Assembly (NCBI GenBank): GCA_028716045.1
Contig: JAQUQO010000001.1
Span: 862,343-926,342, forward strand
DNA: 64,000 bases
Direction of reading: 5' to 3'
Origin: Patescibacteria group bacterium
Lineage (GTDB): Bacteria > Patescibacteriota > Patescibacteriia > JAQUQO01
Below the pieces are notes generated by a model. It searched no databases. It was not told the DNA's origin and worked only from the letters and a program-made list of their open reading frames with translations. Shown here piece after piece: positions 4,146 to 26,564 of the stretch (position 1 is the stretch's first letter; the number at the start of each line of letters is the position of its first letter). The translations under genes were made by a program, and so were the position numbers.

Positions 4146-4229
4146 GCCGATGGTGGGAGTTGAACCCACATCCCGCTAAGCGGGACAGCGCCCTGAACGC
4201 TGCGTGTCTACCAATTCCACCACATCGGC
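4146..4229 (-). tRNA. tRNA-Leu(CAG), long variable arm
   Basis: Reverse complement GCCGATGTGGTGGAATTGGTAGACAC...TTCAGGG anticodon loop...GGTTCAACTCCCACCATCGGCA. 7-bp acceptor stem, long extra arm. Confidence 0.8.
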
Positions 4230-4317
4230 CTTTCGGTTCGCTCCGCTCACTCAAGACCTGATTAATATTAAACGTCATTTTTTCTAAATAATCTTGAGCG
4301 AAGGGAATGAGTCGAAA

Positions 4318-4335
4318 GATTCCACCACCTCGGCC
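4318..4335 (-). repeat. 18-nt partial copy of the tRNA-Leu 5' end (GGCCGAGGTGGTGGAATC), about 90 nt upstream of the intact tRNA
   Basis: Direct comparison with the 5' ends of tRNA-Leu at 4229 and at 25997. Same upstream context (AAAGGCCGA). Confidence 0.45.
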
Positions 4336-4395
4336 CTTTAACACCGGCAGGCGGGTTTGCCGGATTTCTGTGGCCTTAGCTTTGATTGTCTTTAA

Positions 4396-6405
4396 TTAAA
4401 AGTTTAAATTTTTTTTGGTTTTTATGTACCACTTCTCTATCTTAGCGAAACGGTCAGAGGGTATAGTCAAACGATTAGCAACTATTCCTTTAATTTTTTT
4501 ATCCATGACATACGTATAGGTCGGGGAATAAAGGAAAATAGCCGGCAGTTCTTTGCTCATAATATCCTGAAACTCTTTGTATTTTTTGCTACGCTCTTCG
4601 GTGTTGATAGTTTGCCGGGCGTCTTCTAAAAGTTCGTCAATGTGGCGATTGACAAAAATGGCTAAATTGAGTCCGGGGTGAGAATTTTGTGAAGAATGCC
4701 AGAAAGGATAGGGGTCGGGGTCGGAACCGACGATTTCCGAATATAATAAAATTTCGTAATCTCTGTTTTTAATTGTTTCGCGGCGGATATCGGCGGGCGG
4801 AACAATAATCAGATTAACTTTAATGCCAATTTCCTGCCAGTAATTTTTTATCAGTTCCGCGGCTTTGACATTTTCCGCTTGGTTGACGGTGGTTAAATTT
4901 AAAGCTAAGATTTCCCCGCTTTTTTTCCGGAAAAAGTTTTGACCCTTGTCAATTTCGTTGTTAATTTTTTCACTGATAATTTCAGCGGGATCTTTAGTTT
5001 CCGGATTATTTTCCACCGCCGGTAAATTGTTTTCCCCCGCAGCGGCAGCCGGAGGGGTGCTCGTTGGTTGTTTGGCTTTTTCTTCCTCAAGTTTTTTCAG
5101 TTCTTCGGCCAGGCGATTATTTATATAATCTTCAATAGGTAGGATTTCCCATTTTAATTCGTCAAGAATTTTATTAGCCTCGGATAAATTAAGGTCATAT
5201 TTTTCCGTTTCATTGGTATAGCCAAGATAGCCCGGGAGAATGGGCCCGTCAATTACTACTCCTTCCCCGCCCAGTATTTCTTCTAAAATTTTCTGCCGGT
5301 CCAAACTCAGAGCCAGCGCTTTCCTTAAATTTTTATCCTTAAGGACATCCTTTTTTGACTGATTGAAAAAAAGAGCGGTGTATTGAGGTATTTGTAGGGA
5401 ATAATAGACCAGACCTTTGTTTTTTTCCACCACAGATTTCAATTCCCGGGGCAGAAAATTTACACCTTCGGTATTTTTATTGCGCAAGGCCTCAACGGCG
5501 CTGTTAAAATCAGGATAAAATTTGAAGTTAATTTTTTCTATAAAGGGTCGTCCCAAATAATAATTTTCGTTGCGCGATAGACGATAGGATTTTATGTTGC
5601 CCAGCCGATCTTTGGTCAAGCTTTCAAATCTAAAGGGGCCAGACCCTATTGGTTTTAGGTTGTATTCCGCCAAGTGAATGTTGGCCGGGGGAATCTCGCC
5701 CCAAATATGCCTTGGCAAGATGCCAAAAGTAAGAATTTCAATGAACGGTGCGTAAGGTTCTTCAAGAGAAAAAGAAATCTTATAGTCATCAATTTTAGAA
5801 ACAGTTACTCCGCGAAAGCTCGGCGCGAGCGGACTGCGATATTCTGGGTCTTTAATGCTTTCCACCGTAAAAATAACATCATCGGCGGTAAAGGGGGCGC
5901 CATCATGCCACAAAACATTTTGTTTAAGATAAACAGTATAAACTTTTTGGTCCGCGGTTATTTCCCATTTTTCCGCCAGATCCAAAACTATTTCCTGGTT
6001 CTCGTTGTATTGCAGTAAGCTGGAAAAAATTAAACGGCTCAAATCGCGGTCAACCTCGCTGGTTTGCGCCAACACCGGATTAAGGTAGCGCGGTGTTCCC
6101 ACTAAACCCTCAGTATATTCGCCCCCGTAGGAAGGGGAATAGGTCACCCGCTCCTTGTAAGTCATCCAGCCCAAAATTCCTAAGGCCAGTACCGCTGTTG
6201 CCAAAACAATTTTTATCAGTAAATTTTCAGTGGGGCCGAGAAATTTAGGAAGGTGTTTTAGCTGTTTAAAACTGGGAATACGCGATTTTGACAAAGACAA
6301 AACCAGCTTTTTGTCTAAATCCGCTTGTTTGACAAAAGGCCGAGGATTGTTATTTTTTTGGACTTCGTCATTTTTGGAACGACGAAAAAAATCTTGAAAT
6401 TTCAC
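4396..6405 (-). CDS. ABC transporter substrate-binding protein, family 5 (peptide/nickel type), membrane-anchored
   Basis: 669 aa. N-terminal TM helix. SBP_bac_5-like core. Pro/Ala/Glu low-complexity insert. Confidence 0.65.
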   Translation of the reverse strand: MKFQDFFRRSKNDEVQKNNNPRPFVKQADLDKKLVLSLSKSRIPSFKQLKHLPKFLGPTENLLIKIVLATAVLALGILGWMTYKERVTYSPSYGGEYTEGLVGTPRYLNPVLAQTSEVDRDLSRLIFSSLLQYNENQEIVLDLAEKWEITADQKVYTVYLKQNVLWHDGAPFTADDVIFTVESIKDPEYRSPLAPSFRGVTVSKIDDYKISFSLEEPYAPFIEILTFGILPRHIWGEIPPANIHLAEYNLKPIGSGPFRFESLTKDRLGNIKSYRLSRNENYYLGRPFIEKINFKFYPDFNSAVEALRNKNTEGVNFLPRELKSVVEKNKGLVYYSLQIPQYTALFFNQSKKDVLKDKNLRKALALSLDRQKILEEILGGEGVVIDGPILPGYLGYTNETEKYDLNLSEANKILDELKWEILPIEDYINNRLAEELKKLEEEKAKQPTSTPPAAAAGENNLPAVENNPETKDPAEIISEKINNEIDKGQNFFRKKSGEILALNLTTVNQAENVKAAELIKNYWQEIGIKVNLIIVPPADIRRETIKNRDYEILLYSEIVGSDPDPYPFWHSSQNSHPGLNLAIFVNRHIDELLEDARQTINTEERSKKYKEFQDIMSKELPAIFLYSPTYTYVMDKKIKGIVANRLTIPSDRFAKIEKWYIKTKKNLNF

Positions 6406-6429
6406 AGCAGATTTAAATTAGCTCCGCCG

Positions 6430-6648
6430 TTATTTTTGGAGCACCAGCAAGAGAAGGGCTGTTCCTAAAAAGAGTATGGAGAAGATTATAGTTGAAATAA
6501 AAAGAGATTTCTCGATTCCTCTTTTGGTCCGGTAAACATTGCTTTCTCCCCCAAAAGCTGAACCCAGGCCAGTCCCTCGGCGCTGTAATAAAATCACAAT
6601 CATCAGCAGAACGGCGATAACGATTTGTAGAATAGTTAGATATTTCAT
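6430..6648 (-). CDS. secG: preprotein translocase subunit SecG
   Basis: 72 aa, two TM helices, LLQRRGTGLGSAFGG motif typical of SecG. Confidence 0.8.
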   Translation of the reverse strand: MKYLTILQIVIAVLLMIVILLQRRGTGLGSAFGGESNVYRTKRGIEKSLFISTIIFSILFLGTALLLLVLQK

Positions 6649-6787
6649 AGTATTTAAGAGTTTACCATCGGATTAGATAAATGTCAAGCGCTTTTATGGC
6701 GAAACTCATTTTGGCCGTTTTTTTAGGCCTTTATTTTCTAACCGTTATTTTAATGATATACTATTTATGTAGAAAACACAAAACATC

Positions 6788-7498
6788 ATGGCCTTGAGCA
6801 AAAAGATAGTAAAATTTTTTTTAATTATTCTTTTATCCCTACTGATATTAGCCGGGTTATTTTTTACGGGGATTTTTTATTTTAAATCGTTGAATGACGA
6901 TTTAAAATCAGGGGAAAATATTCCTTCGGCGCCGAGCGAGCTGTTTAATCCTCAATTATTATCTTTACGCTCTCAATTGGAAACCGCTGATGACCCGCGT
7001 TTAGGGCCGGACGATGCGCCAATTACTATTGTGCAGTTTATGGATTTCCGCTGTCCGGTTTGCGCCGAGGCCTTTCCAGTTTTGCGGGAGCTTAGTTATT
7101 TATATAAAGATAAGGTTAAATTTATTTTGCGTGATTATCCTTTAAAAGCCGAGGAGTCGTTAAATTTTGCTTTAGCCGGAAATTGCGCTCTGGAACAAAA
7201 AAAGTTTTGGCCGTTTCACGATAAGATGTTCCAGTATAAAGATAAGATTACTTTGGAAAATTTGTCTCAATACACCGAGCAGGCGGGCCTTAATAAAGAA
7301 AATTTTAGCGCCTGTCTAAATTCGGAAAGATATAAGAAAGAAGTTTATGACGATATTGCCGATGCCCAAGCGCTGGGAGTAAAGGGCACGCCCACTTGGT
7401 TTATTAATGGCTATAAATTTGAAGGAGCCGTCCCATTGGAACAATTTAAGGAAATTATCGGCGGCGTGTTGGAGAGAATGGAGACAGGCAGCAAATAG
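6788..7498 (+). CDS. DsbA-family thiol:disulfide oxidoreductase (thioredoxin fold)
   Basis: N-terminal TM helix, CPVC active-site motif, DsbA-like length. Confidence 0.75.
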   Translation: MALSKKIVKFFLIILLSLLILAGLFFTGIFYFKSLNDDLKSGENIPSAPSELFNPQLLSLRSQLETADDPRLGPDDAPITIVQFMDFRCPVCAEAFPVLRELSYLYKDKVKFILRDYPLKAEESLNFALAGNCALEQKKFWPFHDKMFQYKDKITLENLSQYTEQAGLNKENFSACLNSERYKKEVYDDIADAQALGVKGTPTWFINGYKFEGAVPLEQFKEIIGGVLERMETGSK

Positions 7499-7521
7499 GC
7501 AAGATAATTTTTTATAAAAAG

Positions 7522-7554
7522 AAAAAGCCACTAGTTATTAGCTAGTGGCTTTTA
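7522..7554. terminator. intrinsic terminator hairpin AGCCACTAG-TTATTA-GCTAGTGGCT plus U-run
   Basis: Perfect 10-bp stem followed by TTTT. Downstream of the dsbA-like gene. Confidence 0.6.
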
Positions 7555-7706
7555 TGTCGCCGGTTATTTTTTTTCCAAGGATTACTTTGCCAAGGAATAA
7601 ACCCGCGGTGCTTTAATTCCCCCTTCCTTTCCATTTTGCGGATTATCTCCACATAGTCCTCAACCATTAAAACTGTTTTAGGATTTTTAGGTTTTTTTGC
7701 TCCCAT
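7542..7706 (-). CDS. small hypothetical protein (54 aa, MGAKKPKNPKTVLMVEDYVEIIRKMERKGELKHRGFIPWQSNPWKKNNRRHKSH)
   Basis: Not in the ORF track because it is under 60 aa. Strong SD (AGGTGGGAGGA) 6 nt before the ATG on the minus strand. The stop lies inside the terminator hairpin. Confidence 0.3.
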   Translation of the reverse strand: MGAKKPKNPKTVLMVEDYVEIIRKMERKGELKHRGFIPWQSNPWKKNNRRHKSH

Positions 7707-7878
7707 TTTTTCCTCCCACCTTAGGTTTGTTTCTGTAAAGGCGCTGTTTGTATTTTACCGCCAAGGGAGTGCGTTGTCAAACTAGATGCCCAGCAATTTT
7801 ATATTTTAACCCACCCCTTGACCGTCTCTTGATTTTATCTTATACTTACTATTAATTAATTTACTTATCCACATCCTC

Positions 7879-10731
7879 ATGCCGCAGGAAAAAATAATCA
7901 TCAAGGGCGCGCGAGTCCATAATTTAAAGAATATCAACGTCAATATTCCTAAAAATAAACTCGTGGTGATAACCGGTCTTTCCGGTTCGGGCAAATCCTC
8001 GCTGGCTTTTGATACTATTTATGCCGAAGGCCAGCGCCGTTACGTGGAATCGCTTTCTTCTTACGCCCGCCAGTTTTTAGGAGTAATGGACAAGCCGGAT
8101 GTTGATAAAATTGAAGGATTGTCCCCGGCTATTGCCATTGACCAGCGGTCTTCTTCCACCAACCCCCGTTCCACGGTCGGGACCATGACGGAAATTTATG
8201 ATTATTTGAGATTGCTTTACGCCCGCGCCGGCCGTCCCCATTGCCCGAAGTGCGGCAAGCTGGTGGCTAAGCAGACGGCTAACCAAATTGTTCAAAAGAT
8301 TTTAACTCTTCCCTCCAATCAGGATATTTTAGTCCTTTCGCCGGTTATTCGCGATGTTAAGGGCGACCAGCACGGGACCATTAAAGAAATTAAAAAAGCC
8401 AATTATAAAAATATCAGGATTGACGGAGAATTTTTAAGCGTGGAGGAAGCGGAAAATCTCCATTTTGATAAAAACAGCAAACATACCATAGAGGTCGTAG
8501 TCGGGGGATTTAATACCACTGACATAGATTGGGAAAAATTGCCCAAAGTGATTGACGCCGCCCTAGACCTTGGCAACGGATTTATTTCCGTTTATCTGCC
8601 GGACAACAAAGAGAATATCACCATGAGTGAATTTTTTGTTTGTCCGGAGTGCGATATTTATTTGCCGGAAATTGAGCCGCGGCTTTTTTCTTTTAACTCT
8701 CCCAATGGGGCTTGCGCCAGCTGTTCCGGCCTTGGCACCACACTGGAAGTCATACCTGATTTAGTCATACCCAATAAAAAGCTGACTTTAAATGAAGGAG
8801 CGATTAAGCCCTGGACGCGCATTTCGGGGAATCAAAGCTCGCAGAATAAACTGCTGAAAGAAGTGGCTAAAAAACACGGTTTTACCCTCTCCAAGCCGAT
8901 AGAAAAATTAAAAAAATCGGAAGTGGATGTTATTTTACATGGAACCGGCGAGGAAATTTATAACGTGGATGGGGAGGAAATGAAATTTGAGGGTGTAGTA
9001 AATTATTTAGCCCAAAAATATCGTGAAACCGACTCCGATTATATCCGCAAAGAAATTGAAAATTACATGCAAATTAAGATTTGTAAAACCTGCGACGGCA
9101 AAAGGTTGCGGCCTGAAGCTTTAGCGGTGACTGTCGGAGGATATTCCATTAATGATTTGGTGCGTTTTGATATCGGGAAATTAATTTCCTTTTTTAAGGA
9201 ATTAACCGGCGTTTCCAAAAAATCGGAGTTTAATATAAAGAAGGAAGAAACCCTGTCGGTTTCCGAAAAAAAGATTTCCGACCTTTTAATCAGGGAGGCG
9301 TTGGTGCGCTTGCAACATTTGGCCAATGTCGGCTTAGTTTATTTGAATCTTGACCGTCCTACCACCACCCTTTCCGGCGGAGAGGCCCAGCGCATTCGTC
9401 TGGCCACTCAAATCGGTTCGGATCTCTCGGGCGTAATTTATATTTTAGACGAACCGTCAATCGGTTTGCATCAGCGCGATAATGATAAGCTGATAGAAAC
9501 TTTGCGCGAACTGCAAAAGATCGGCAACACGGTGATTGTGGTGGAGCATGATAAATCAATGATGGAGGCGGCGGACGAAATCATTGATATCGGCCCCGGC
9601 GCGGGAGAATACGGCGGGCACATTGTCGCCCAAGGCTCTCCGGCGGAGATAAAAAAAGACAAGAGTTCGCTCACCGGCAAATATCTAAGCGGGAAATCAA
9701 AAATAGAATTACCCAAAGAGTATCGCCGGGGCAGTAATAAATTTTTAATTATTGAAGGAGCTTCGGAATTTAATTTAAAAAATATCACCGCCAAGATTCC
9801 TTTGGGGAAACTGGTTTGCCTTACCGGCGTTTCCGGTTCTGGCAAATCAACTTTGATGACTGAAATTTTAGCCAAGGCCTTGGCTAAAAAGTTTTATCGC
9901 GCCAAAGATGAGCCGGGCAAACACAAAGCAATTAAGGGCATGGAAAATATAGATAAGGTTATTACCATTGACCAGTCGCCCATCGGCCGTACCCCGCGCT
10001 CCAATCCCGCGACTTATACCGGTGTGTTTACTTACATCCGTGATTTATTTACGCTGACGCCGGAGGCCAAGATGCGCGGTTATGATGCCGGCAAGTTCAG
10101 TTTTAATGTCCGCGGGGGGAGATGTGAATCCTGCGGCGGCGACGGCTTTGTCAGAATTGAGATGCAGTTTCTGCCCGATGTTTATGTGGAGTGCGAAATT
10201 TGTCATGGCAAACGCTATACGGCCGAAGCGCTGGAAATTCATTATAAGGGGAAAAATATCGCTGGTGTTTTGGAGATGACCGTGGAAGAGGCGAGGAAAT
10301 TTTTTTCCGATATTGAAATCATTAAGGATAAATTAAATATCCTCTGCGAAGTGGGGCTGGGTTATATCAAGCTCGGCCAGCCGGCGCCCACTCTTTCCGG
10401 CGGTGAAGCGCAAAGAGTGAAATTGGCGACTGAATTGTCCCGCCGCGCCACCGGCAAGACGCTTTATATTTTAGACGAGCCGACCACCGGCCTTCATTTT
10501 GAGGATATCAAGAAATTATTGATTGTCTTAAACCAATTGGTTGACAAAGGAAATACGGTTTTGATTATTGAACATAATTTAGATGTGGTAAAATGCGCTG
10601 ACTGGGTTATTGATATGGGGCCGGAAGGGGGAGACGCGGGCGGATATATCGTGGCCGAAGGAACGCCTAAAGACGTGGTTAAAGTTAAAAAAAGTTTTAC
10701 GGGAGAATATTTAAAAAAGTTTTTAAAATAG
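7879..10731 (+). CDS. uvrA: excinuclease ABC subunit A
   Basis: 950 aa. Two ABC ATPase modules ([23 protein letters not shown] signatures). Zn-finger Cys clusters. Typical UvrA N-terminus. Confidence 0.95.
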
Positions 10732-13828: not shown

Positions 13829-15334
13829 TTATTCCACTTCTTCGTATTTTTTAAAAAATGCTTCCTTGTTTTTCTTTTCGTATTCGCCTAGATTCGGCTC
13901 CAGCTTTTTTAAATCCTCGCCCGGCAGTTTATTTAATTCCCCGGCTCTCTGTTCCAGATATTTTTTAGTATTTTTTTTCTTGTCTTCCAGAACTTCTCCC
14001 AGCAGGGCTTTCAGCAGAAAACCAATACGCGGCCCCGGCGGCATTTTAAAAATTTTCATTAAATCATTACCGTCAATTTTAAGCATGGAAGTGGTAATGG
14101 CGTCCATTTGCACTTCCTGTATTTTTCGTTCCAACACCTGAAGTTTCCAGGGCTTGGCTTTGGGCCGACCCATGCCCAGCCGGTCGCAGATGCGCAGGCG
14201 GATAAGGTCATTGACATTGTCTTTGCCGACGCGCGCCAGCAGACGGCGCACTCCGGCATCGGTCACCTCGCCCAAACTGTAGTAAAACATATGATGGCGG
14301 ACGAGATGAGAAATTTTTTCGGTCAGTTCGTTGGAATAGCGCAGGCGGTATAATATTTTTTTGGCAATTTTCGCGCCCACCAAATCGTGATTGAAAAAAG
14401 TGCTGGTTTTTCCCAGGCCCCTTTTGGTCTGCGGTTTGGCGATGTCATGGAGCAGGGCGGCCAGGCGGATTTCCAAATCGTAATTTCTTTCCGCGGCAAA
14501 ACCAAGTGATTTAGTCAGATGCTCAAAGACGGTATAAATGTGGCTGCGGTTTTGAGTTAACCCCACCCCCGCAGTCAGTTCCGGAATAAAAATTTTTAAC
14601 AGATTTAATTTGTATAAAAGATTCAGGCCTTCTTCGGCTTTGGCCGACATGATTATTTTAGTGAATTCATCGCGAATTCTCTCGGCGCTGATTTTTGAAA
14701 GTCCTGCGGCGTTTTTCTTTATCGCTTCCCAAGTATTTTTTTCAATCAGAAACCCCAGCTGGCAGGCCAGGCGCACGGCCCGCAACATTCTGGTGTAATC
14801 CTCGGCGAATCTTTCTTCCGGCTTGCCGACAGTGCGGATGATTTTTTCTCCCAAATCTTTTTCTCCTTCAAAGGAGTCAATTAATTTCTCCGTTGTGAGT
14901 TGTGAGTTGTGAGTTGTGAGTTTAAGCGCCATGGCATTAACTGTAAAATCGCGACGGGATAAATCTTCCTCAATAGACAGTTTGAAATTTGATTGCACGT
15001 CAAAATCTTTATATTTACCGGTGCCCCATGATTCTTCCGTGCGGGGTAAGGCGATATCAAACGGTTCTTTGATTTTTTTGTTCTTTGGCAGAAATTTAAA
15101 AACTCCGAATGCTCCCCCGACTAAATCCACCCGCCCCTCTTCGGCTAAAAATTTTTCCAGTTGTTCGGGCGCAACATTTCTGACCACAAAATCGTAGTCA
15201 TAAGTGGTTCGTCCTAAAAGCAAATCGCGTACCGCCCCGCCCACTAAAAAAATTTCCGCTTGAGGAAAAGACCTAAGCAATTTTTTTATCCAAGAAAACT
15301 CGGTATTTTTTAAAATTTTTTCCAGATTCTTCAT
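13829..15334 (-). CDS. cca: CCA-adding tRNA nucleotidyltransferase / poly(A) polymerase family with HD domain
   Basis: 501 aa. GGAVRDLLLG...DYDF head-domain motif. HD motif (LLHDIAK). Contains the in-frame 7-bp tandem repeat listed below. Confidence 0.8.
   Translation of the reverse strand: MKNLEKILKNTEFSWIKKLLRSFPQAEIFLVGGAVRDLLLGRTTYDYDFVVRNVAPEQLEKFLAEEGRVDLVGGAFGVFKFLPKNKKIKEPFDIALPRTEESWGTGKYKDFDVQSNFKLSIEEDLSRRDFTVNAMALKLTTHNSQLTTEKLIDSFEGEKDLGEKIIRTVGKPEERFAEDYTRMLRAVRLACQLGFLIEKNTWEAIKKNAAGLSKISAERIRDEFTKIIMSAKAEEGLNLLYKLNLLKIFIPELTAGVGLTQNRSHIYTVFEHLTKSLGFAAERNYDLEIRLAALLHDIAKPQTKRGLGKTSTFFNHDLVGAKIAKKILYRLRYSNELTEKISHLVRHHMFYYSLGEVTDAGVRRLLARVGKDNVNDLIRLRICDRLGMGRPKAKPWKLQVLERKIQEVQMDAITTSMLKIDGNDLMKIFKMPPGPRIGFLLKALLGEVLEDKKKNTKKYLEQRAGELNKLPGEDLKKLEPNLGEYEKKNKEAFFKKYEEVE
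14892..14922. repeat. (GTTGTGA)x4.4 perfect 7-bp tandem repeat inside the cca coding sequence
   Basis: Read directly. On the coding strand it encodes LTTHNSQLTT. The unit length is not a multiple of 3. Confidence 0.9.
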
Positions 15335-15392
15335 GTTTATATTGTAGCATAAAGCGGGGGCTAGGGTAACAAAAGGCGCGGGGATAGTGGTA

Positions 15393-15421
15393 TTGACAAA
15401 ATTTAAGTGGTATGTTAAGAT
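15393..15421 (+). promoter_or_regulatory. sigma70-like promoter TTGACA-N17-TAAGAT
   Basis: Consensus -35, 17-nt spacer, TAAGAT -10. This -10 recurs in several promoters in the window. Confidence 0.5.
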
Positions 15422-15427
15422 GGTTTG

Positions 15428-15558
15428 TTGTTCATTTAAAATCGGGATAGTGGGCCATTCGTGGTTTTAAATCCACGGAAGTCCTTTCCATAAGTACAGG
15501 GTAAAATTTGTTTTACCGGTTTTTGTATTATTCACCTTAATTAAAGGAGAAAAACACA
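15428..15558 (+). promoter_or_regulatory. structured ~130-nt 5' leader with two hairpins; the second is terminator-like and followed by a U-run (possible attenuator)
   Basis: Hairpins CGTGG-N9-CCACG (15460-15478) and GGTAAAA-TTTG-TTTTACC (15500-15517) followed by GGTTTTTG. SD AAAGGAG lies 9 nt before the ATG. Confidence 0.35.
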
Positions 15559-16239
15559 ATGGCAGAAAAGGCAAAGAAAAATCCGTTTTTGGTCTGCTCG
15601 TCCGACGAGAAATGTTTTCTCGTTGAGATAGAGGGTACCGAACGTCTTCTGATGGACCAGATGACAGGAGAAGAGATTGTCGAGACATTGATTCGTCGCA
15701 AAAGGCAGCAAGCTAAGACGGACGTCTCCCTTGAAGATTTGGCATCCGAGTCAATTTACCGCGACGGAGAAAACAAAATTATTATCCCCGCGGTAAATCT
15801 GCTGTCTTGCCTCCGTGAGGCCGGCAAACAGATTCCTTGGGGAGCGACTTCAAGTAAAAAGAGAATCACCAAAGCCGACGGCACCACCATGCTTCACTCC
15901 TTTCTGAAAATCCCCGATGCCAACCTTATTCTTGAGCTTCCCGAAGAGGGAGTTAACAAGGAGGGCTGGGCTGTGGATGTGCGCAAGGGGAAGCTGAAAG
16001 ACGGCACAGCCGTAGGGATTGTCAGGCCCTTGTTTCGGGAATGGTCGTTTAAAGTCAAAATTTACATTGACTTTTATACCTCCGAAGTGACTCCCGAAAT
16101 GGTCGGCAAGCTTTTTTTCACGGCTGGCAAATCGGTCGGACTTTGTGCTTTCCGTCCGGCCTGCGGTGGTCCTTTTGGCACTTTCCACGTCAAAAGCTGG
16201 GAAGAGGTTAAGGCCCCTGCAGCTGAAGAAGCCGCGTAA
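15559..16239 (+). CDS. hypothetical protein, no family recognised; G+C-richer than its neighbours
   Basis: 226 aa. Own promoter and SD. Codon usage visibly richer in G/C-ending codons (CTC, GTC, GAC) than flanking genes. Gly/Cys-rich C-terminal segment GLCAFRPACGGPFGTF. Confidence 0.6.
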   Translation: MAEKAKKNPFLVCSSDEKCFLVEIEGTERLLMDQMTGEEIVETLIRRKRQQAKTDVSLEDLASESIYRDGENKIIIPAVNLLSCLREAGKQIPWGATSSKKRITKADGTTMLHSFLKIPDANLILELPEEGVNKEGWAVDVRKGKLKDGTAVGIVRPLFREWSFKVKIYIDFYTSEVTPEMVGKLFFTAGKSVGLCAFRPACGGPFGTFHVKSWEEVKAPAAEEAA

Positions 16240-16258
16240 AAAGTTGCGTAATGAATTT

Positions 16259-16286
16259 GGGATAGGGTTAAAATTTAACCCTATCC
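16259..16286 (+). other. perfect 13-bp stem-loop GGATAGGGTTAAA/TTTAACCCTATCC just after the stop codon; no U-run, so not a terminator
   Basis: Read directly in the 3' UTR of gene 15559-16239. Confidence 0.5.
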
Positions 16287-16374
16287 AACCGATTGTTATG
16301 GTTTTCGTTTATTCTCAGTGCGTTATTGTTCAGTAGACCAAAGCCTCGTAAGGTGGTGTAACCTACCGCAGCTC

Positions 16375-16412
16375 GGGGCAAGGTCCATTAAGACCTTGCC
16401 TTTTTCTTTTTT
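16375..16412 (+). terminator. intrinsic terminator, copy A of the locus-specific hairpin family (GGGGCAAGGTCCATTAAGACCTTGCC + U-run)
   Basis: Stem-loop plus TTTTTCTTTTTT. Ends the 3' UTR / sRNA-1 of gene 15559. Confidence 0.65.
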
Positions 16413-16436
16413 GCACCCCCCTTGTCATTTAATTTA

Positions 16437-16464
16437 TTTAAAGTTAACAGATTTTTTGTAATAT
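16437..16464 (+). promoter_or_regulatory. candidate promoter TTTAAA-N16-TAATAT (TG immediately upstream of the -10)
   Basis: Motif spacing read directly. Weaker -35 than the other promoters. Confidence 0.35.
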
Positions 16465-16470
16465 AGCTAT

Positions 16471-16630
16471 CTTTTGTGCCGCGTTTTTCACTTGTGCAGC
16501 GTGTTGTCTGGCGTAGCAATCCAGAGCTCAGCACACTTTACAGCCCTAAAGTTTCGTAGAGTAAAGTCTTGCCCCCCACCGTTCAGTTCGCCACAGGGCA
16601 GAGTCCATTGAGACCCTGCCTTTTTTATTT
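16471..16630 (+). ncRNA. putative small RNA unit 2 (~155 nt), ends in terminator copy B
   Basis: No ORF. Bounded by promoter and terminator. Shares the motifs GCGTAGC...CCAGAGC...AGCACA...CAGGGCAG with unit 3b. Confidence 0.4.
16594..16630 (+). terminator. intrinsic terminator, copy B (CAGGGCAGAGTCCATTGAGACCCTGCC + T6)
   Basis: Near-identical to copies C and D. Confidence 0.65.
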
Positions 16631-16688
16631 CCTTTAACTAAGCCCCTGACACGCCCCAATGCTTGGCATCGGGGCACTCCAAAAGTGC

Positions 16689-16717
16689 TTGACAAGTTTT
16701 ATGCTGTTTGTTAAGAT
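16689..16717 (+). promoter_or_regulatory. sigma70-like promoter TTGACA-N17-TAAGAT
   Basis: Consensus -35 and 17-nt spacer. Same -10 as the promoter of gene 15559. Confidence 0.55.
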
Positions 16718-16723
16718 TTTTTG

Positions 16724-16856
16724 TTGAGTAATAATATATAGTTATAAAATGCTTTGTGATCTGCTGTGTTGTTCACCCCGACTTTCTTGGGTTCAGTAAA
16801 GCATAGCGAATTAATGTAGAGCATAGGGCCTCGAATTTTCGGGGCCACTTTTTTTA
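16724..16856 (+). ncRNA. putative small RNA unit 3a (~130 nt) with its own distinct terminator
   Basis: Promoter upstream. Terminator GGCCTCGAA-TTT-TCGGGGCC + T7 at 16826-16856. Body motif AGCATAGCGAATTAATGTAGAGCATAGGGCC is related to units 2 and 3b. Confidence 0.4.
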
Positions 16857-16870
16857 AAACACCGTATTTA

Positions 16871-16899
16871 TTGACAAAAGATGATTTCCATGCTAATAT
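16871..16899 (+). promoter_or_regulatory. sigma70-like promoter TTGACA-N17-TAATAT
   Basis: Consensus spacing. Confidence 0.55.
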
Positions 16900-16905
16900 A
16901 TATTT

Positions 16906-17016
16906 TATATAAGAGTAGCGCTTAGTTTCATTTAGTTAGGCACTGCGTAGCGCATTAAATTTCAGAGCATTGTAGCACAGGGCAGGGTCCAGTGAGATTC
17001 TGCCATTTTTATTTTT
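16906..17016 (+). ncRNA. putative small RNA unit 3b (~105 nt), ends in terminator copy C
   Basis: GTAGCGC...GCGTAGCGCATTAAATTTCAGAGCATTGTAGCACAGGGCAGGGTCC is paralogous to unit 2. Confidence 0.4.
16978..17016 (+). terminator. intrinsic terminator, copy C (CAGGGCAGGGTCCAGTGAGATTCTGCC + U-run)
   Basis: Covarying stem changes relative to copies B and D preserve base pairing. Confidence 0.65.
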
Positions 17017-17020
17017 GCTA

Positions 17021-17049
17021 TTGACAAAAATCAGAGTTTATATTAGAAT
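17021..17049 (+). promoter_or_regulatory. sigma70-like promoter TTGACA-N17-TAGAAT for the helicase gene
   Basis: Consensus spacing. SD AAGGAAA precedes the ATG at 17103. Confidence 0.6.
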
Positions 17050-17063
17050 ATAAAGATTTTTGA

Positions 17064-18923
17064 TTGTTTAAGATTAAACGTTCTTTGAGAAAGGAAATTA
17101 AAATGAATGTAGCAGTAAAGGATTTTTTAAAGCATTTTCCCCATGAAAAGATGAGGGATACACAGGAAAAGGCGTTAGAGAAAGTTGCTAGCTCAGAAAA
17201 GGGCGTAATTCTTGAAATGCCAACCGGTTCCGGTAAAACGGCGGTCGGCATAACTGTTCTTAAGACGATGGCTAAAAAAGGGAGTAAAGGTCTTTTTTAT
17301 ATTACTCCCACCAAAACTTTAGTTGACCAAATACGGCGTCTTTTCCCAAATGATGTGACAGTTATTCTTGGTCGGGCGGAGTATCAGTGCCTTTATTACA
17401 GTTCGCAAGGAATTCTCGGGATAAATGCCGAAGAATCTCCTTGCTATATGCTGAAGTGTCCACATCGCGTTGACCAAGAGACGGGTAAGGTTTGCGAAAG
17501 CGGCGTTGAACCGTGTCCTTATTTCAAAGCCAAGCATGAAGCCAAAAAACGGGCAGAGGAAGGTGGAATTGTTCTTTGCACGACCGCTTTTTTCCTTAAA
17601 AACAGGTTGACGGTAGAGGGTTGGCGTGATAACAAACCGGATGCGGTCGTTATTGATGAAGTGCATCGGTTGGCCAAAATTGCAAGGGATATTTTTTCTT
17701 ACACTCTTACCGATTATCATCTTGGGAGAGTTGCTAAATTGGTAGCGGAGTTTGACGAGAAACAAGCTGAGATTATCAAAAAGTTTAATGGGCGTTTTAG
17801 GCAGATTGCCCGGCGAAGAATATCTTGCAAGCCGTCCCTTTTGAAAATAGAAGAAGTCGAGAGCTTGATCAAGATAATGGAAAATATAGATGACCAATAT
17901 CTTGAGAAAAAAATTAGGGAAGCGGTAGATGCCGGCAAAATTAATCCCGTGGAGCAGAAAGGCGACCTTAAAACATTGGAGAATTTTATTACCAATATAC
18001 CTCGACTTATCCGGTCTCTTTGTTATGCGACTGATTTGGAAAAAGAAAATCCGCTTAATTACGTTGTCGCCTTTTATTACACAAAGGACGACCCGGAATT
18101 TGCTGGCACCAAAAGAAAGGCAAGATATTTTCTTACCATCAAAAGCTATTTTGTTATTCCGATTATCAGGCGGGTGCTTGGCAAAAAGGTAATTGCCTAT
18201 TCCGCTACTATCGGCGATAGTAGAATATTCAGTTTTGAGACGGGGATCAAGTTGCCCTTCTTTAGCTTTCCCTCTATGTTCCCCATAGAGCAGGCCAAGA
18301 TTTTTATGCCGACAGATACAAAAAATTTGGCGGTAAGCAGAAGAAGAAGGGGCGACCTGAGCAAGAGTCTGCGTCTGGTAGTGGAAACATCTTTGCTTTT
18401 TGCCAAGAAGGGCTGTCGTTCTTTGGTGGTAGTGGTTTCAGAGGAAGAACGGCAGAAGTTTTTACAGATTGCGGGCGAAAAAGGGTTGGAGGCGATAAGC
18501 TATGGGAATGGGATAAAGCCCAGAGAAGCGGCCGCTAAATTTTCCCGCGGAGAGGGGCAAGTTCTTGTGGGAACCGCTGCCAACTATTCCGAGGGTGTTG
18601 ATTTCCCCAAAAAACTTGCGCCGGTGATTTTTTTCTTACGACCCGGTTATCAACGTCCTGATGACCCGGAAACCCAGTTTGAAGAAAGACGGTTTACCAA
18701 CGGTCAGGTCTGGGCATTAAGAAATTGGCGGGTGATGTTAGAGGCGTTGCAGGTTCGGGGCCGCAATATTCGCGGCGCTGAAGATATTGGGGTGTGTTTC
18801 TTTATATCCCAGCAGTTCCGCAATTTCCTTTATACTTCTATGCCGGAGTGGTTAAAACCAGCTTACTCGGGGCAACTGACAATGGAGGGGGCAGTGAAGG
18901 AGGCGATGAAATTATTAAAGTGA
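17064..18923 (+). CDS. XPD/DinG-like superfamily-2 helicase with Fe-S (4-Cys) insertion
   Basis: Walker A MPTGSGKT. DEVH box (VVIDEVHRL). Cys cluster (CLYY...CYMLKCPH...CESGVEPCPY) between motifs I and II, as in XPD/DinG. C-terminal GTAANYSEGVDFP helicase_C_2-like motif. The likely true start is ATG 17103 (MNVAVKDFL), which has an SD. Confidence 0.7.
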   Translation: MFKIKRSLRKEIKMNVAVKDFLKHFPHEKMRDTQEKALEKVASSEKGVILEMPTGSGKTAVGITVLKTMAKKGSKGLFYITPTKTLVDQIRRLFPNDVTVILGRAEYQCLYYSSQGILGINAEESPCYMLKCPHRVDQETGKVCESGVEPCPYFKAKHEAKKRAEEGGIVLCTTAFFLKNRLTVEGWRDNKPDAVVIDEVHRLAKIARDIFSYTLTDYHLGRVAKLVAEFDEKQAEIIKKFNGRFRQIARRRISCKPSLLKIEEVESLIKIMENIDDQYLEKKIREAVDAGKINPVEQKGDLKTLENFITNIPRLIRSLCYATDLEKENPLNYVVAFYYTKDDPEFAGTKRKARYFLTIKSYFVIPIIRRVLGKKVIAYSATIGDSRIFSFETGIKLPFFSFPSMFPIEQAKIFMPTDTKNLAVSRRRRGDLSKSLRLVVETSLLFAKKGCRSLVVVVSEEERQKFLQIAGEKGLEAISYGNGIKPREAAAKFSRGEGQVLVGTAANYSEGVDFPKKLAPVIFFLRPGYQRPDDPETQFEERRFTNGQVWALRNWRVMLEALQVRGRNIRGAEDIGVCFFISQQFRNFLYTSMPEWLKPAYSGQLTMEGAVKEAMKLLK

Positions 18924-19031
18924 AACATTATAATAAATGTACAGTCCTTTATTGTAAATTACCGAACAGTATAGTGACGTTTAGTCTTCTGGCGTCACGT
19001 CGACTCGAGTCTTGAACACAACACTACTGTG

Positions 19032-19067
19032 CAGGGCAGGGTCCATTGAGACCCTGCCATTTTTTAT
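19032..19067 (+). terminator. intrinsic terminator, copy D (CAGGGCAGGGTCCATTGAGACCCTGCC + U-run), ~110 nt after the helicase stop
   Basis: Identical hairpin to copy B apart from one stem base. Confidence 0.65.
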
Positions 19068-19076
19068 CAAATCCAA

Positions 19077-19108
19077 CCTCTCCCGACAAATATCGGAGAG
19101 GTTTTTTT
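19077..19108. terminator. second hairpin CCTCTCCCGA-CAAATA-TCGGAGAGG + T7, bidirectional (serves the convergent M23 gene)
   Basis: Stem-loop read directly. Confidence 0.55.
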
Positions 19109-19133
19109 ATTTTCCCGGATAAATATAAAGCGA

Positions 19134-20456
19134 TTATTTTATATATAACAGCGGGTTCATTTTGCGCCCGTTGATGATTACTTCAAAGTGAATATGCGTG
19201 CCGGTGGAGCGTCCGGTGGTTCCCATCATAGCAATAGTTTCCCCGCGGCTGACTTGTTGGCCTCTTTTTACAAAAAGTTTGCTGGCATGGCCGTAGCGGG
19301 TTTTGACTCCATTCCCATGATTGATTAATATTTGCAACCCATATCCGCCCAGCCACCCCGCGGATTCCACCGTCCCACTTTCGGCGGCATAGAGCGGCGA
19401 GCGGTAGTCGCCGTCAATATCAAGACCGCTGTGACGCCAGCTGTAATATTGAGTGATGACACGCCAGCTGGTCGGCCAAAGCATTTTGCCGCTGGCAATT
19501 TGCGTCGACCCGGGCGGTTTCACGGCGCTTTTATCAACCGGACTCCAGGTTCTGGCAGGGGCGCTATAAACAGGAATAATCTTGCCGTCAGGCACCATTA
19601 AAATATCTCCGGTGGCGATGTCACTGGTATCAGTCAGTTTATTGAAAGCAATAATTTTTTCTTCGGTAGAACCGTATTGTTTGGCGATTTTCGCGACCGT
19701 ATCGCCCTTTTTGACTTTGTGCTCCACGCCGTCAGCCGGCAGAATTTTTAATTTGTCGCCCGGCCGGATGTAGCTGTAAGCGCTTAGGTTATTCGCCCAA
19801 AGCATAGTATTCACCGCCAAGCTGAACTTTTCCGCGATACTGGAAATAGTATCATTTTGCTCAACGATATATTCAACCGTTTCGGTGCGGGTTTTTAAGC
19901 CGAGTTTGGTGTTGGAGATATTGGTTCGGACAAGGGCAGTGTCTCCTTGGGCGGTTGGCAAATCACTTTCTTCCTCGGTGACATCTTCAATTAAATAAGG
20001 GACCGGCCGGAGAGTACTCTGAATGCCGCGCGAACTATCCAAGTAGCTCAAGAGTTTGTCTTCTTTTTCCGGTATGGCGCTTTCCTTTTCTACTATCGGG
20101 CCTTCTTCAATGGTGTAATTATAACTCAGGTCGTCTTTGACCATAGAATAAAGAATGCTCTTTTCTCCGAAATCTTCCCGGCGGGTTTCTTGGGCGTTGA
20201 GATTGTCAAAAGTTATTAAAGCGACGATGGCGATGATGACTACGTAGACAGCGTATTGATTGGTAAAGACGGAAAGAAATTTATTTTGCTGATAAACAAA
20301 AATTTTTTGCAGGAACCTTTTTATGGTTAGATAAGTTTTATAAAACGAAATTATCGCTGGCCGTCCGAGAAATTTCCAGGTTTGTCCTGCCAGCCAAGCT
20401 AAGAGCGGTTTTAGATTTTTTCTAAGAAAATTAAAAAATCTGCCAAAATAAATCAA
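19134..20456 (-). CDS. LysM-domain M23 family metallopeptidase (peptidoglycan hydrolase)
   Basis: 440 aa. N-terminal TM helix. Two LysM-like segments. C-terminal M23 motifs HSGLDIDG...HLHFEV-type (HIHFEV). Confidence 0.85.
   Translation of the reverse strand: MIYFGRFFNFLRKNLKPLLAWLAGQTWKFLGRPAIISFYKTYLTIKRFLQKIFVYQQNKFLSVFTNQYAVYVVIIAIVALITFDNLNAQETRREDFGEKSILYSMVKDDLSYNYTIEEGPIVEKESAIPEKEDKLLSYLDSSRGIQSTLRPVPYLIEDVTEEESDLPTAQGDTALVRTNISNTKLGLKTRTETVEYIVEQNDTISSIAEKFSLAVNTMLWANNLSAYSYIRPGDKLKILPADGVEHKVKKGDTVAKIAKQYGSTEEKIIAFNKLTDTSDIATGDILMVPDGKIIPVYSAPARTWSPVDKSAVKPPGSTQIASGKMLWPTSWRVITQYYSWRHSGLDIDGDYRSPLYAAESGTVESAGWLGGYGLQILINHGNGVKTRYGHASKLFVKRGQQVSRGETIAMMGTTGRSTGTHIHFEVIINGRKMNPLLYIK

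Positions 20457-25803: not shown

Positions 25804-25815
<12 letters not shown>
25485..25815 (+). mobile_element. putative mini insertion (~295 bp) carrying a GIY-YIG ORF, bounded by 18-19 bp direct repeats TATTAAGCGGTAGTAGTT equal to the 5' end of tRNA-Gly
   Basis: DR copies at 25485-25502 and 25798-25815. The left copy continues as a degenerate tRNA-Gly 5' half (D-arm TTGGTAGAACG retained, anticodon arm replaced by palindrome CCCCGCCATGGCGGGG). Confidence 0.35.
25562..25810 (+). CDS. GIY-YIG nuclease-domain protein (YhbQ/UPF0213-like)
   Basis: 82 aa. FVYILQS...YYIGSTNDLSRRLEEHN matches the GIY-YIG motif. The stop codon lies inside the first bases of tRNA-Gly. Confidence 0.7.
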
Positions 25816-25876
<61 letters not shown>

Positions 25877-25968
25877 CAAAGAAAAAATTATTGTATTTGG
25901 GTTTTGAAAATGTAAATTTTTTCAGAACGGACCACCCGTTTTTTATTTTTGTCGTGCGGGTTTTGGGT

Positions 25969-25989
25969 GACCCCGCCTTGGCGGGGGAA
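25969..25989 (+). repeat. 21-bp hairpin element GACCCCGCCTTGGCGGGGGAA (exact second copy at 33358-33378; related palindrome at 25537-25552)
   Basis: Exact string match seen twice. Lies immediately 5' of tRNA-Leu(TAA). Confidence 0.8.
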
Positions 25990-25996
25990 CCGAAAG

Positions 25997-26084
25997 GCCG
26001 AGGTGGTGAAATAGGTAGACACGCGAGACTTAAAATCTCGTGGATGAATAATCCGTGCGGGTTCGATTCCCGCCCTCGGCACCA
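25997..26084 (+). tRNA. tRNA-Leu(TAA), CCA encoded
   Basis: GCCGAGG acceptor stem, anticodon loop CTTAAAA, long variable arm, GGTTCGATTCC T-arm, ...CACCA 3' end. Confidence 0.85.
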
Positions 26085-26085
26085 A

Positions 26086-26174
26086 GACAACCAACAACAG
26101 AACAACAGAACAACTGACAACCCAGAACATTCTATCTCGTTGTTAGTTATTGGTTGTAGGTTGTCAGTTCCTTT
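26086..26174 (+). repeat. ~90-nt tRNA-Lys leader, copy 1 (CAACCAACAACAGAAC...GGTTGTAGGTTGTCAGTTCC), with internal inverted repeats
   Basis: Near-identical to 26401-26489. Copy 1 has an extra CAGAACAA duplication. Confidence 0.8.
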
Positions 26175-26250
26175 GCGCCGTTAGCTCAGCTGGTAGAGCA
26201 ACTGCCTTTTAAGCAGAAGGTCACAGGTTCAAATCCTGTACGGCGTACCA
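26175..26250 (+). tRNA. tRNA-Lys(TTT), CCA encoded
   Basis: GCGCCGTTAGCTCAGCTGGTAGAGC, anticodon loop CTTTTAA, T-arm GGTTCAAATCC. Confidence 0.85.
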
Positions 26251-26312
26251 GAGCGGACATCTTCGAACGTTCGTAAATTATTTTTTATTAGTGTAGTGAA
26301 AAGAAAAATTTT

Positions 26313-26399
26313 GGGTCGGTACCAAAGCGGTCAACTGGGGCAGACTGTAAATCTGCTGGCCTTGTGCCTTCGTTGGTTCGAATCCAGCCCGACCCACCA
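26313..26399 (+). tRNA. tRNA-Tyr(GTA), long variable arm, CCA encoded
   Basis: GGGTCGG acceptor stem, anticodon loop CTGTAAA, GGTTCGAATCC T-arm. Confidence 0.85.
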
Positions 26400-26400
26400 A

Positions 26401-26489
26401 GATAACAAGACAACCAACAACAGAACAACTGACAACCCAGAACATTCTATCTCGTTGTTGGTTATTGGTTGTAGGTTGTCAGTTCCTTT
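26401..26489 (+). repeat. tRNA-Lys leader, copy 2
   Basis: Segmental duplicate of 26086-26174. Confidence 0.8.
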
Positions 26490-26564
26490 GCGCCGTTAGC
26501 TCAGCTGGTAGAGCAGTTGCCTCTTAAGCAAACGGTCGCAGGTTCAAATCCTGCACGGCGCACC
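26490..26564 (+). tRNA. tRNA-Lys(CTT)
   Basis: Same body as Lys(TTT) but anticodon loop CTCTTAA. 3' end ACC (CCA not fully encoded). Confidence 0.85.

Follow-up and report, generated by a model that had tools for sequence, protein, structure and literature searches.

The locus at about positions 15393-19066 of a 64,000-nucleotide stretch of the Patescibacteria group bacterium contig JAQUQO010000001.1 (assembly GCA_028716045.1, positions 862,343 to 926,342 of the forward strand; this whole 64-kb stretch is called the window hereafter) is, we conclude with high confidence, a VIPR (Viral Interference Programmable Repeat) system in a Patescibacteria chromosome, made up of a Cas7-like Vipr protein, five vrRNA genes and an accessory helicase. 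The whole system is compact, as a protein of 226 amino acids (aa), five guides and one helicase are encoded within 3.7 kb. The sequence-level features of VIPR systems that could be looked for in this locus were found, with the base-contacting residues kept in part. YNNNG repeats, helicases among the vap genes and chromosomal loci are already present in the preprints on VIPR, and the locus is thus a further member of this recently described kind and not something outside what the preprints describe. The form found here is probably a helicase type, for which type IV, reached by elimination from the available part of the preprint text, is a candidate.

VIPR was described as a non-contiguous RNA-guided mode of DNA recognition and was proposed to predate CRISPR (10.64898/2026.04.26.720920, 10.64898/2026.04.26.720927), with Vipr as a minimal RAMP and proposed ancestor of Cas5, Cas6 and Cas7 (10.64898/2026.04.26.720920). 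The vrRNAs consist of 9-16 YNNGG pentamers (or the alternatives NNNGG, YNNNG and NNNNG) followed by an invariant structured 3' tail, and their genes lie in the intergenic DNA flanking vipr; one protomer covers each repeat and sequesters GGY, and the NN bases read double-stranded DNA with every third base skipped (10.64898/2026.04.26.720920, 10.64898/2026.04.26.720927). According to the part of the text available, there are seven VIPR types, and types III-V carry vap genes for enzymes such as nucleases or helicases (10.64898/2026.04.26.720920, 10.64898/2026.04.26.720927). About 25% of VIPR loci are on cellular chromosomes, self-targeting was reported for no VIPR type and viral targets were reported for the chromosomal types, and experimental study has so far dealt with the phage type II VIPR only (10.64898/2026.04.26.720920, 10.64898/2026.04.26.720927). 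The locus described here is a clean example, with all its parts delimited, of the helicase-associated form that is still uncharacterised, and it comes from a small-genome bacterium of the candidate phyla radiation. It bears on two points, the reading of a relaxed (A)GY repeat by Vipr and the contribution of a helicase to a nuclease-free RNA-guided filament.

A Vipr protein with a Cas7-type fold

The open reading frame (ORF) at 15559-16239 on the + strand is real, with an ATG preceded by AAGGAG, and its 226-aa product contains the C-terminal sequence GLCAFRPACGGPFGTFHV that an earlier note on this DNA, written from the letters alone, had pointed out as glycine-rich. The same note took the gene for an orphan of no recognisable family. 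This is wrong, because an exhaustive HMMER search recovered 780 homologues at E<1e-3 (297 of them at E<1e-10), which are 200-250 aa long and 30-47% identical, and a search of PHROGs gave one full-length match to phrog_4652, a family of unknown function (E 1.6e-14). Searches of the ORF against Pfam, PADLOC and NCBIfam returned no match, and a word-indexed search of 5.8 billion proteins matched the protein only to itself; its NCBI record is that of a hypothetical protein from a Patescibacteria group metagenome-assembled genome (MAG), on a contig of 927,681 bp.

The identity of the family was given by a profile. A single-sequence search of PDB chains had yielded a weak match to the Vipr protein of SUSP1 (36pp_D, E 0.12), and a profile of 58 family members matched the same chain at E 3.6e-12, with positions 13-201 of the 207 in the profile aligned to residues 4-192 of the 202 in the chain. 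No Cas7 chain was matched by this profile at E<=1. A phage structural protein was considered as an alternative identity and rejected; the sole non-Vipr sequence match in PDB was a capsid/scaffold protein at E 0.68.

The fold points to the same family. An AlphaFold (AF2) model built from a 14-sequence alignment reached a predicted local distance difference test score (pLDDT) of 78 and a predicted template-modelling score (pTM) of 0.75, against a pLDDT of 41 for the single-sequence model. The top 50 Foldseek matches of the model in PDB were all Cas7-type RAMPs (Csm3, Cmr4, Cas7-11 and type VII Cas7), at E 1.6e-6 to 5e-4, and the best match among viral predicted structures was an uncharacterised viral protein (E 2e-10, template-modelling score 0.63-0.67). 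The earlier note had raised the idea of a RAMP, could not fit the glycine-rich C-terminus to the canonical loop and proposed structure prediction as a check. The idea was correct, since both the profile and the Foldseek matches are RAMPs. Furthermore, the near-invariant motif AGxxxGLGxFRPxxxGPFGxF at the C-terminus of the family alignment aligns to the loop of Vipr that is rich in glycine (G-loop), so that by alignment the C-terminus can be assigned as the RAMP G-loop.

Five vrRNA genes with a shared tail

Period-5 signals were scanned for in every register and on both strands of the 64 kb; the units sought begin with a pyrimidine and have G as their fifth base. The five top-scoring segments of the window are all in the locus and all on the + strand; four are placed between vipr and the helicase gene and the fifth directly past the latter (Table 1). 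Thirty shuffles of the window gave maximum scores of 12.5-17.7 bits, and four of the five tracts beat every shuffle. The tracts have 13-23 units each, whereas 4 tandem pentamers suffice by the VIPR definition of a vrRNA gene. The tracts are too degenerate for Tandem Repeats Finder, which did not detect them.

The similarity between vrRNA units is confined to the promoter and the tail, and the repeat bodies share just the register. A logo was made of 240 units at fixed positions, drawn from the window and from two related loci. A pyrimidine occupies position 1 in 96% of them (0.83 bits), positions 2 and 3 are near uniform and hypervariable (0.04 bits each), position 4 is A in 53% and G in 8% (0.33 bits), and position 5 is G in 59% and C in 24% (0.46 bits). 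Such an alternation between conserved bases and a hypervariable dinucleotide is characteristic of VIPR, here in the YNNNG variant.

The earlier note had read the flanks of the gene as long untranslated regions ending in plain terminators. They are instead separate small-RNA genes, several of which have promoter-like sites of their own. Strong sites of this kind stand ahead of three tracts, and two of these are copies of the vipr promoter module (family D3, three 31-nt copies at 15391, 16687 and 16869). No strong promoter stands ahead of vrRNA1, and this gene is probably co-transcribed with vipr through the hairpin after the stop codon, which has no U-run. The stretch of about 130 nt beyond that hairpin, ending in a further hairpin and T-run (16375-16402), is present as the note described it, and the latter hairpin is one of four 33-nt copies (family D2).

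These tails were aligned as 21 copies from three loci, namely the window and two of the related loci described below (L001 and L005). Their consensus is (Y)ACAGGGC, an 8-bp stem, GCC-A and a U-rich run. In this alignment 94.6% of the stem cells are paired, against no more than 59% when the register is shifted by 1-3 columns; double-change cells number 41, against 12.4 ± 2.8 in column shuffles. A covariance model of the tail found the five vrRNA sites in the 64 kb and no other site below E 0.7, as well as many more copies in L005 and L008. Four loci outside the training set gave weaker matches (E 6e-4 to 0.03), without exception on the + strand. Since the tail is both conserved and co-varying, the supposed terminator copies are the 3' handle of the vrRNAs, and the hairpins very probably end transcription as well. 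VIPR loci can be spotted in raw sequence by pentamer periodicity combined with the co-varying tail hairpin.

The surroundings hold no sign of a CRISPR system. No CRISPR array was found within the 64-kb window by repeat-family and tandem-repeat searches, and the flanking genes that were checked (cca, a pseudouridine synthase, an M23 peptidase and H+-PPase) are housekeeping genes and not cas genes. An Rfam search over 15300-19200 matched no ribozyme or other known RNA.

An accessory helicase linked to vipr

The second protein of the locus belongs to the XPD/Rad3/DinG family of superfamily 2 helicases, with ResIII, DEAD, DEAD_2 and Helicase_C_2 domains and the Walker-B motif DEVH. Translation probably starts at the ATG at 17103, as this methionine is conserved. 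Cysteines C109, C127, C132 and C151 are invariant among three aligned helicases, which suggests an intact iron-sulphur (Fe-S) domain. The closest solved relatives are archaeal XPD proteins (E 2.5e-14), and the matches to YoaA, DinG and Rad3 models in NCBIfam are weak and below the cut-offs. In PADLOC the best match of the protein (17103-18920) is typeIV_DinG PDLC01439, over the full length and at E 2.5e-48; the Csf4_0_IVA model of CCTyper gave only E 5.5e-4, and no solved CasDinG chain was among the PDB matches at E<=10. A tie to the CasDinG of type IV systems is, judging from these similarities, only a lead.

Related loci were gathered with a helicase alignment over 185,579 species genomes. 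Six close helicase homologues were found, including ones in MAGs of Patescibacteria, Parcubacteria and Saccharibacteria, and a Vipr gene was present within about 1.2 kb on the same strand at all six (hmmsearch E 1e-63 to 1e-78). None of 13 control loci with distant helicases had a Vipr gene. YNNNG tracts of at least 18 bits occurred in five of the six helicase-vipr loci (26 tracts on the + strand and 1 on the - strand) and in none of the 13 controls. Given this complete linkage and the tracts, with controls that lack both, the helicase is an accessory gene of this VIPR form.

Two divergent relatives, one of them from a Candidatus Parcubacteria MAG, have Vipr proteins 28% and 31% identical to the one described here and a helicase that is 55% identical. 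Both keep the order vrRNAs, vipr, vrRNAs, helicase and vrRNAs, with the helicase of about 610 aa placed about 600 nt past vipr, and their neighbouring genes are unlike those of the window.

Other arrangements were seen among the loci examined. L007, from MAG isolate WY5.bin166, has two tandem and slightly overlapping Vipr paralogues (583-1206 and 1202-1918) upstream of the helicase. L002-L004 are phage-like contigs of 57% GC that carry a distant Vipr relative, P0156, with an HTH_3 gene and no helicase. In L002 (about 4170-9600), at least 10 arrays of CNNNG/CNNGG pentamers surround P0156, and CAAGG stands at the end of each. Several of the arrays overlap called ORFs, and since CNNNG is its own reverse complement they give scores on both strands. 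The P0156 locus probably represents another VIPR type, one in which the array is large.

Residue contacts and a possible variant repeat code

In the SUSP1 structure, H17 and D177 contact G1 of the repeat, R138 and W178 contact G2, and R179 contacts Y3 (10.64898/2026.04.26.720927). These residues were placed on the Vipr protein of the window through the family profile. The G2 contacts are kept, with R138 corresponding to R156 (the thumb arginine) and W178 to F198 (the G-loop aromatic residue), as is the Y3 contact, with R179 corresponding to R199 (the G-loop arginine). A basic residue that touches the target backbone in SUSP1 is kept too (K33, here R49). The G1 readers are replaced, H17 by D33 and D177 by A197. 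In a comparison of eight loci, the arginines never vary, and F, Y or W fills the aromatic position in each.

The column of D177 may vary between loci together with position 4 of the repeat. Among the helicase-linked loci, Asp occurs in this column only in L011, in which 45% of the units have G at position 4. The frequency of G at this position is 4-14% in four loci with Ala and in L009 with Ser, and it is 32% in L007, the other Ser locus; in the phage-like L002, which has Asp in the column, it is 21%. The loss of the G1 contacts in the Vipr protein of the window parallels the loss of G at position 4, from which we infer a variant code rather than a lost function. In this small sample of aligned sequences the co-variation between protein and RNA is suggestive only.

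These observations leave room for a wider possibility, which we put forward tentatively and consider rather less likely than not to hold in full: that the locus represents a distinct VIPR form in which changes in the Vipr pocket have shifted the code from GGY/NN to (A)GY/NN, and in which the filament works with an Fe-S helicase of XPD/DinG type related to the DinG of type IV-A. Such a form would link VIPR in evolution to class 1 CRISPR interference that depends on a helicase, or would be a present-day analogue of this step.

Proposed mechanism and points against the VIPR reading

By analogy with SUSP1, one Vipr protomer would bind each pentamer and form a helical filament along the vrRNA, hiding the conserved (A)GY bases and exposing the two hypervariable bases of each unit. 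The exposed bases would read double-stranded DNA in a gapped NNx code, with a skip of one base, over about 24-40 bp per guide. The tail element would serve as 3' handle and intrinsic terminator. The helicase would probably be recruited to, or loaded at, the bound target and unwind or clear the DNA, much as Cas3 or CasDinG do downstream of Cascade-like complexes. Most likely the system would defend its host against phages or other mobile elements.

Several points weigh against this reading of the locus. The consensus Y-N-N-(A)-G is looser than the characterised GGY/NN, with G at only about 60% of fifth positions, and the vrRNA4 tract (16.9 bits) is within the range of the shuffles on periodicity alone. 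The Foldseek library was one that lacks the solved structure of SUSP1 Vipr, so the likeness of fold to Vipr itself is not a structure-to-structure comparison. The rule of a one-nucleotide skip was demonstrated only for type II systems with GGY/NN repeats (10.64898/2026.04.26.720920, 10.64898/2026.04.26.720927). Expression of the vrRNAs, binding between Vipr, RNA and DNA, and the targeting rule are what we infer by analogy for a locus known here from its sequence alone. A scan of the 64-kb window for matches to its own guides found none under skip rules 0-2, and under a skip of 3 it found the vrRNA genes themselves; a window without a self-target agrees with the preprint's report of no self-targeting. 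Finally, no natural target was found, as none of the seed matches in IMG/VR or in metagenomes extends past the seed beyond chance.

The seeds were exact NNx matches of 8-9 units from four guides, a procedure far less sensitive than the nhmmer procedure of the preprint, which sets a threshold of 80% NN match. Five 8-unit seeds gave 4, 10, 6, 35 and 34 matches in IMG/VR, and one 9-unit seed gave 9 in metagenomes. The best case, a vrRNA5 seed match with 25 of 30 positions matched in phage contigs of 66% GC, was judged to be a chance match because the seed itself is GC-rich. The seed matches of vrRNA4 in related phage contigs of 37% GC were likewise rejected, with 3 of the 8 remaining positions matching, which is the level expected by chance.

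Alternative explanations

The first alternative accepts a true VIPR system and changes its role, which would be to regulate genes of the host or of plasmids, or to aid DNA repair or replication through the XPD-like helicase, and not to act against phages. The locus is placed among housekeeping genes on a chromosome contig, the seed scans found no viral target, and the helicase is better conserved than Vipr (55% against 28-31% identity); moreover, type IV-A systems with DinG carry natural guides that regulate chromosomal genes, according to the accessible part of a published report (PMC11551745). Against this, no target was found in the 64-kb window under any skip rule, and the preprint reports viral targets for chromosomal types and no self-targeting. 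Moreover, the helicase clade was found at only 6 loci, each time with vipr beside it, which would be odd for a repair enzyme of housekeeping type. We consider a role outside defence unlikely.

The locus could also be a degenerate or orphan remnant of a class 1 CRISPR-Cas system, in which a stray Cas7 of Csm3/Csf2 type and a DinG helicase from type III or IV would persist with no guide function of their own. This is suggested by the fold matches to Csm3, Cmr4 and Cas7-11 and by the type IV-A-associated DinG model, the best match of the helicase in the defence library. Against it, the family profile matches Vipr and no Cas7 chain, the Csf4 model and the solved CasDinG structures give little or no match to the helicase, and there are no CRISPR array in the 64 kb and only housekeeping genes among the neighbours checked. 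Furthermore, the layout of two genes and pentamer RNAs is kept across divergent genomes, which is unlike decay. A remnant of this kind is very improbable.

Least credible of all is that the tracts are ordinary small RNAs, terminator modules or promoter-terminator cassettes of incidental periodicity beside a generic RNA-binding protein: each unit does look like a promoter with an intrinsic terminator, and vrRNA4 does not stand out from the shuffles, but the other four tracts do, all five are on one strand, the periodicity and tail recur beside Vipr genes in unrelated genomes and at none of the 13 controls, the conserved positions 1 and 5 and hypervariable positions 2 and 3 are those of the VIPR code, and the protein positions that contact G2 and Y3 are kept across loci.

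Composition of vipr and other features of the locus

The earlier note had also described the gene as atypical in composition and had taken this to suggest horizontal acquisition. The first claim stands in part. With a GC content at third codon positions (GC3) of 0.553, vipr exceeds all other ORFs among the 51 of the window (mean 0.43, standard deviation 0.056), at z about 2.2 and ahead of values of 0.52 and 0.51. When its synonymous codons are scored by the usage of the other genes, the likelihood is the third worst of 49 (z -1.8). In a ranking by least host-like codon usage, vipr is third and the helicase fifth. GTC (0.50 against 0.19) and GAC (0.70 against 0.36) are enriched as the note said, but CTC (2 of 19) and CGC (0.27 against 0.25) are not, and vipr lies only at the edge of the local distribution. 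Horizontal acquisition is plausible given the mild atypia, the occurrence of relatives in differing contexts and the rare helicase clade, but it is unproven.

The perfect inverted repeat that the note had placed after the stop codon is present at 16260-16286. It has a 12-bp stem, a 3-nt loop and a folding energy of -20.7 kcal/mol, and none of 200 shuffles was as stable. A hairpin is found at the equivalent position in L001 (6708) and L005 (6711). The repeat probably stabilises the 3' end of the mRNA or marks a processing boundary ahead of vrRNA1.

The second hairpin of the vipr leader (15496-15524, ACAGGG-TAAAATTTGTTTTACC-GGTTTTT) resembles the vrRNA tail in having ACAGGG, a hairpin and a U-run. 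The leader has no YNNNG periodicity and no pentamer tract ahead of this hairpin, and relatives carry vrRNA arrays upstream of vipr; the hairpin may be what is left of an upstream vrRNA that has decayed, or may act as an attenuator. Three copies of the motif GGGATAG(T)GG are found around vipr (15381, 15444 and 16259), over the -35 box, in the leader and as the 5' arm of the post-stop hairpin, out of only seven in the 64 kb. The motif may function as an operator or as a processing signal.

Outside the pentamer tracts, a GC-rich hairpin, GCCCCAATGC-TTG-GCATCGGGGC, is found at 16652-16681 between the terminator of vrRNA2 and the promoter of vrRNA3. Right past the vrRNA5 tail, a terminator-like hairpin with a T-run (CTCTCCCGACAAATATCGGAGAGG, 19073-19110) lies towards the convergent M23/LysM peptidase gene, for which it probably serves as terminator. 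Elsewhere in the window, the opposite-strand cca gene contains a perfect 7-nt tandem repeat (GTTGTGA x 4.4, 14892-14922), and a tRNA cluster at 25804-26564 (Gly, Leu, Lys, Tyr, Lys) includes a 190-nt duplication, 26060-26249 against 26375-26564, with 88% identity.

Table 1. Features of the putative VIPR locus, in window coordinates. Promoters and terminators are predicted.
Feature	Coordinates	Strand	Details
vipr promoter-like site, TTGACA-17-TAAGAT with TG extension	15393..15421	+	One of three 31-nt module copies
vipr leader, ~130 nt, two hairpins	15422..15558	+	Fold -29.6 kcal/mol, z -1.8
vipr, 226-aa Vipr protein (minimal Cas7-like RAMP)	15559..16239	+	Profile, fold model, G-loop ~190-209, thumb Arg R156
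Perfect hairpin 20 nt past the vipr stop, no T-run	16260..16286	+	Fold z -4.5
vrRNA1: ~13 pentamers 16314-16378, tail hairpin 16375-16402, T-run	16314..16410	+	Segment 16314-16413, 23.8 bits
vrRNA2: weak promoter-like site 16444-16473, ~20-23 pentamers 16482-16596, tail 16597-16620, T-run	16444..16627	+	Segment 16462-16596, 35.6 bits, best of the window
vrRNA3: promoter 16689-16717 (TTGACA-17-TAAGAT), pentamers 16737-16826, variant tail GGCCTCGAATTTTCGGGGCC 16827-16846, T-run	16689..16856	+	22.9 bits; tail model 36.2 bits
vrRNA4: promoter 16871-16899 (TTGACA-17-TAATAT), ~13 pentamers 16916-16980, tail 16981-17004, T-run	16871..17012	+	16.9 bits; tail model 40.3 bits
Helicase promoter-like site, TTGACA-17-TAGAAT	17021..17049	+	11/12 matches
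XPD/Rad3/DinG-family SF2 helicase (vap role)	17064..18923	+	Domain matches, linkage 6/6
vrRNA5: promoter-like site 18906-18934 inside the helicase 3' end, 15 pentamers 18940-19014, 20-nt linker, tail 19035-19058, T-run	18906..19066	+	22.0 bits; tail model 41.1 bits

Comparison with known systems

The closest known system is the type II VIPR of the Escherichia phage SUSP1, which has Vipr, vap1 and four vrRNAs (PDB 36pp). The two systems share full-length Vipr homology, the thumb arginine and the aromatic and arginine residues of the G-loop, tandem pentamers with two hypervariable bases per unit and an invariant structured 3' tail, and a vrRNA array in the intergenic DNA flanking vipr with no CRISPR array. 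They differ in the repeat, which is Y-N-N-(A)-G (AGY/NN-like) here and YNNGG in SUSP1, and in the residues at the G1 readers, which are Asp and Ala here in place of H17 and D177. The tail is a simple terminator hairpin here and a pseudoknot there, and one of the guides reaches about 20-23 units against the 9-16 there. Finally, the accessory gene encodes an XPD/DinG-type helicase instead of the DNA-binding vap1, and the host is a Patescibacteria chromosome instead of a phage.

VIPR types III-V, as far as the available preprint text describes them, resemble the locus in their chromosomal location, an enzyme accessory (helicase), repeats of YNNNG type and, for some, a proposed role in host defence. 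That part of the text gives no mechanistic description of their helicase systems.

The resemblance to Cas7-family RAMPs (Csm3, Cmr4, Csf2 and Cas7-11) is one of fold, with template-modelling scores of about 0.45-0.55 and a common RRM core, beta-hairpin thumb and glycine-rich loop, and presumably one of architecture, as both would form a filament along a guide RNA. Unlike these systems, with which sequence identity is 10-15%, the locus has no Cas5, Cas6, large subunit or CRISPR array, and its code is predicted to be a gapped pentamer code in place of a contiguous spacer.

Among CRISPR-Cas systems, type IV-A with CasDinG (Csf4) offers a further comparison. The helicase here has no csf genes near it, and its closest solved relatives are the archaeal XPD proteins and not CasDinG. 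CasDinG is not known to have an Fe-S domain, and the four invariant cysteines suggest that this domain is intact in the helicase described here. What the two would share is a Cas7-type filament combined with a helicase of the DinG/XPD superfamily and no nuclease, an arrangement from which nuclease-independent interference or silencing is predicted.

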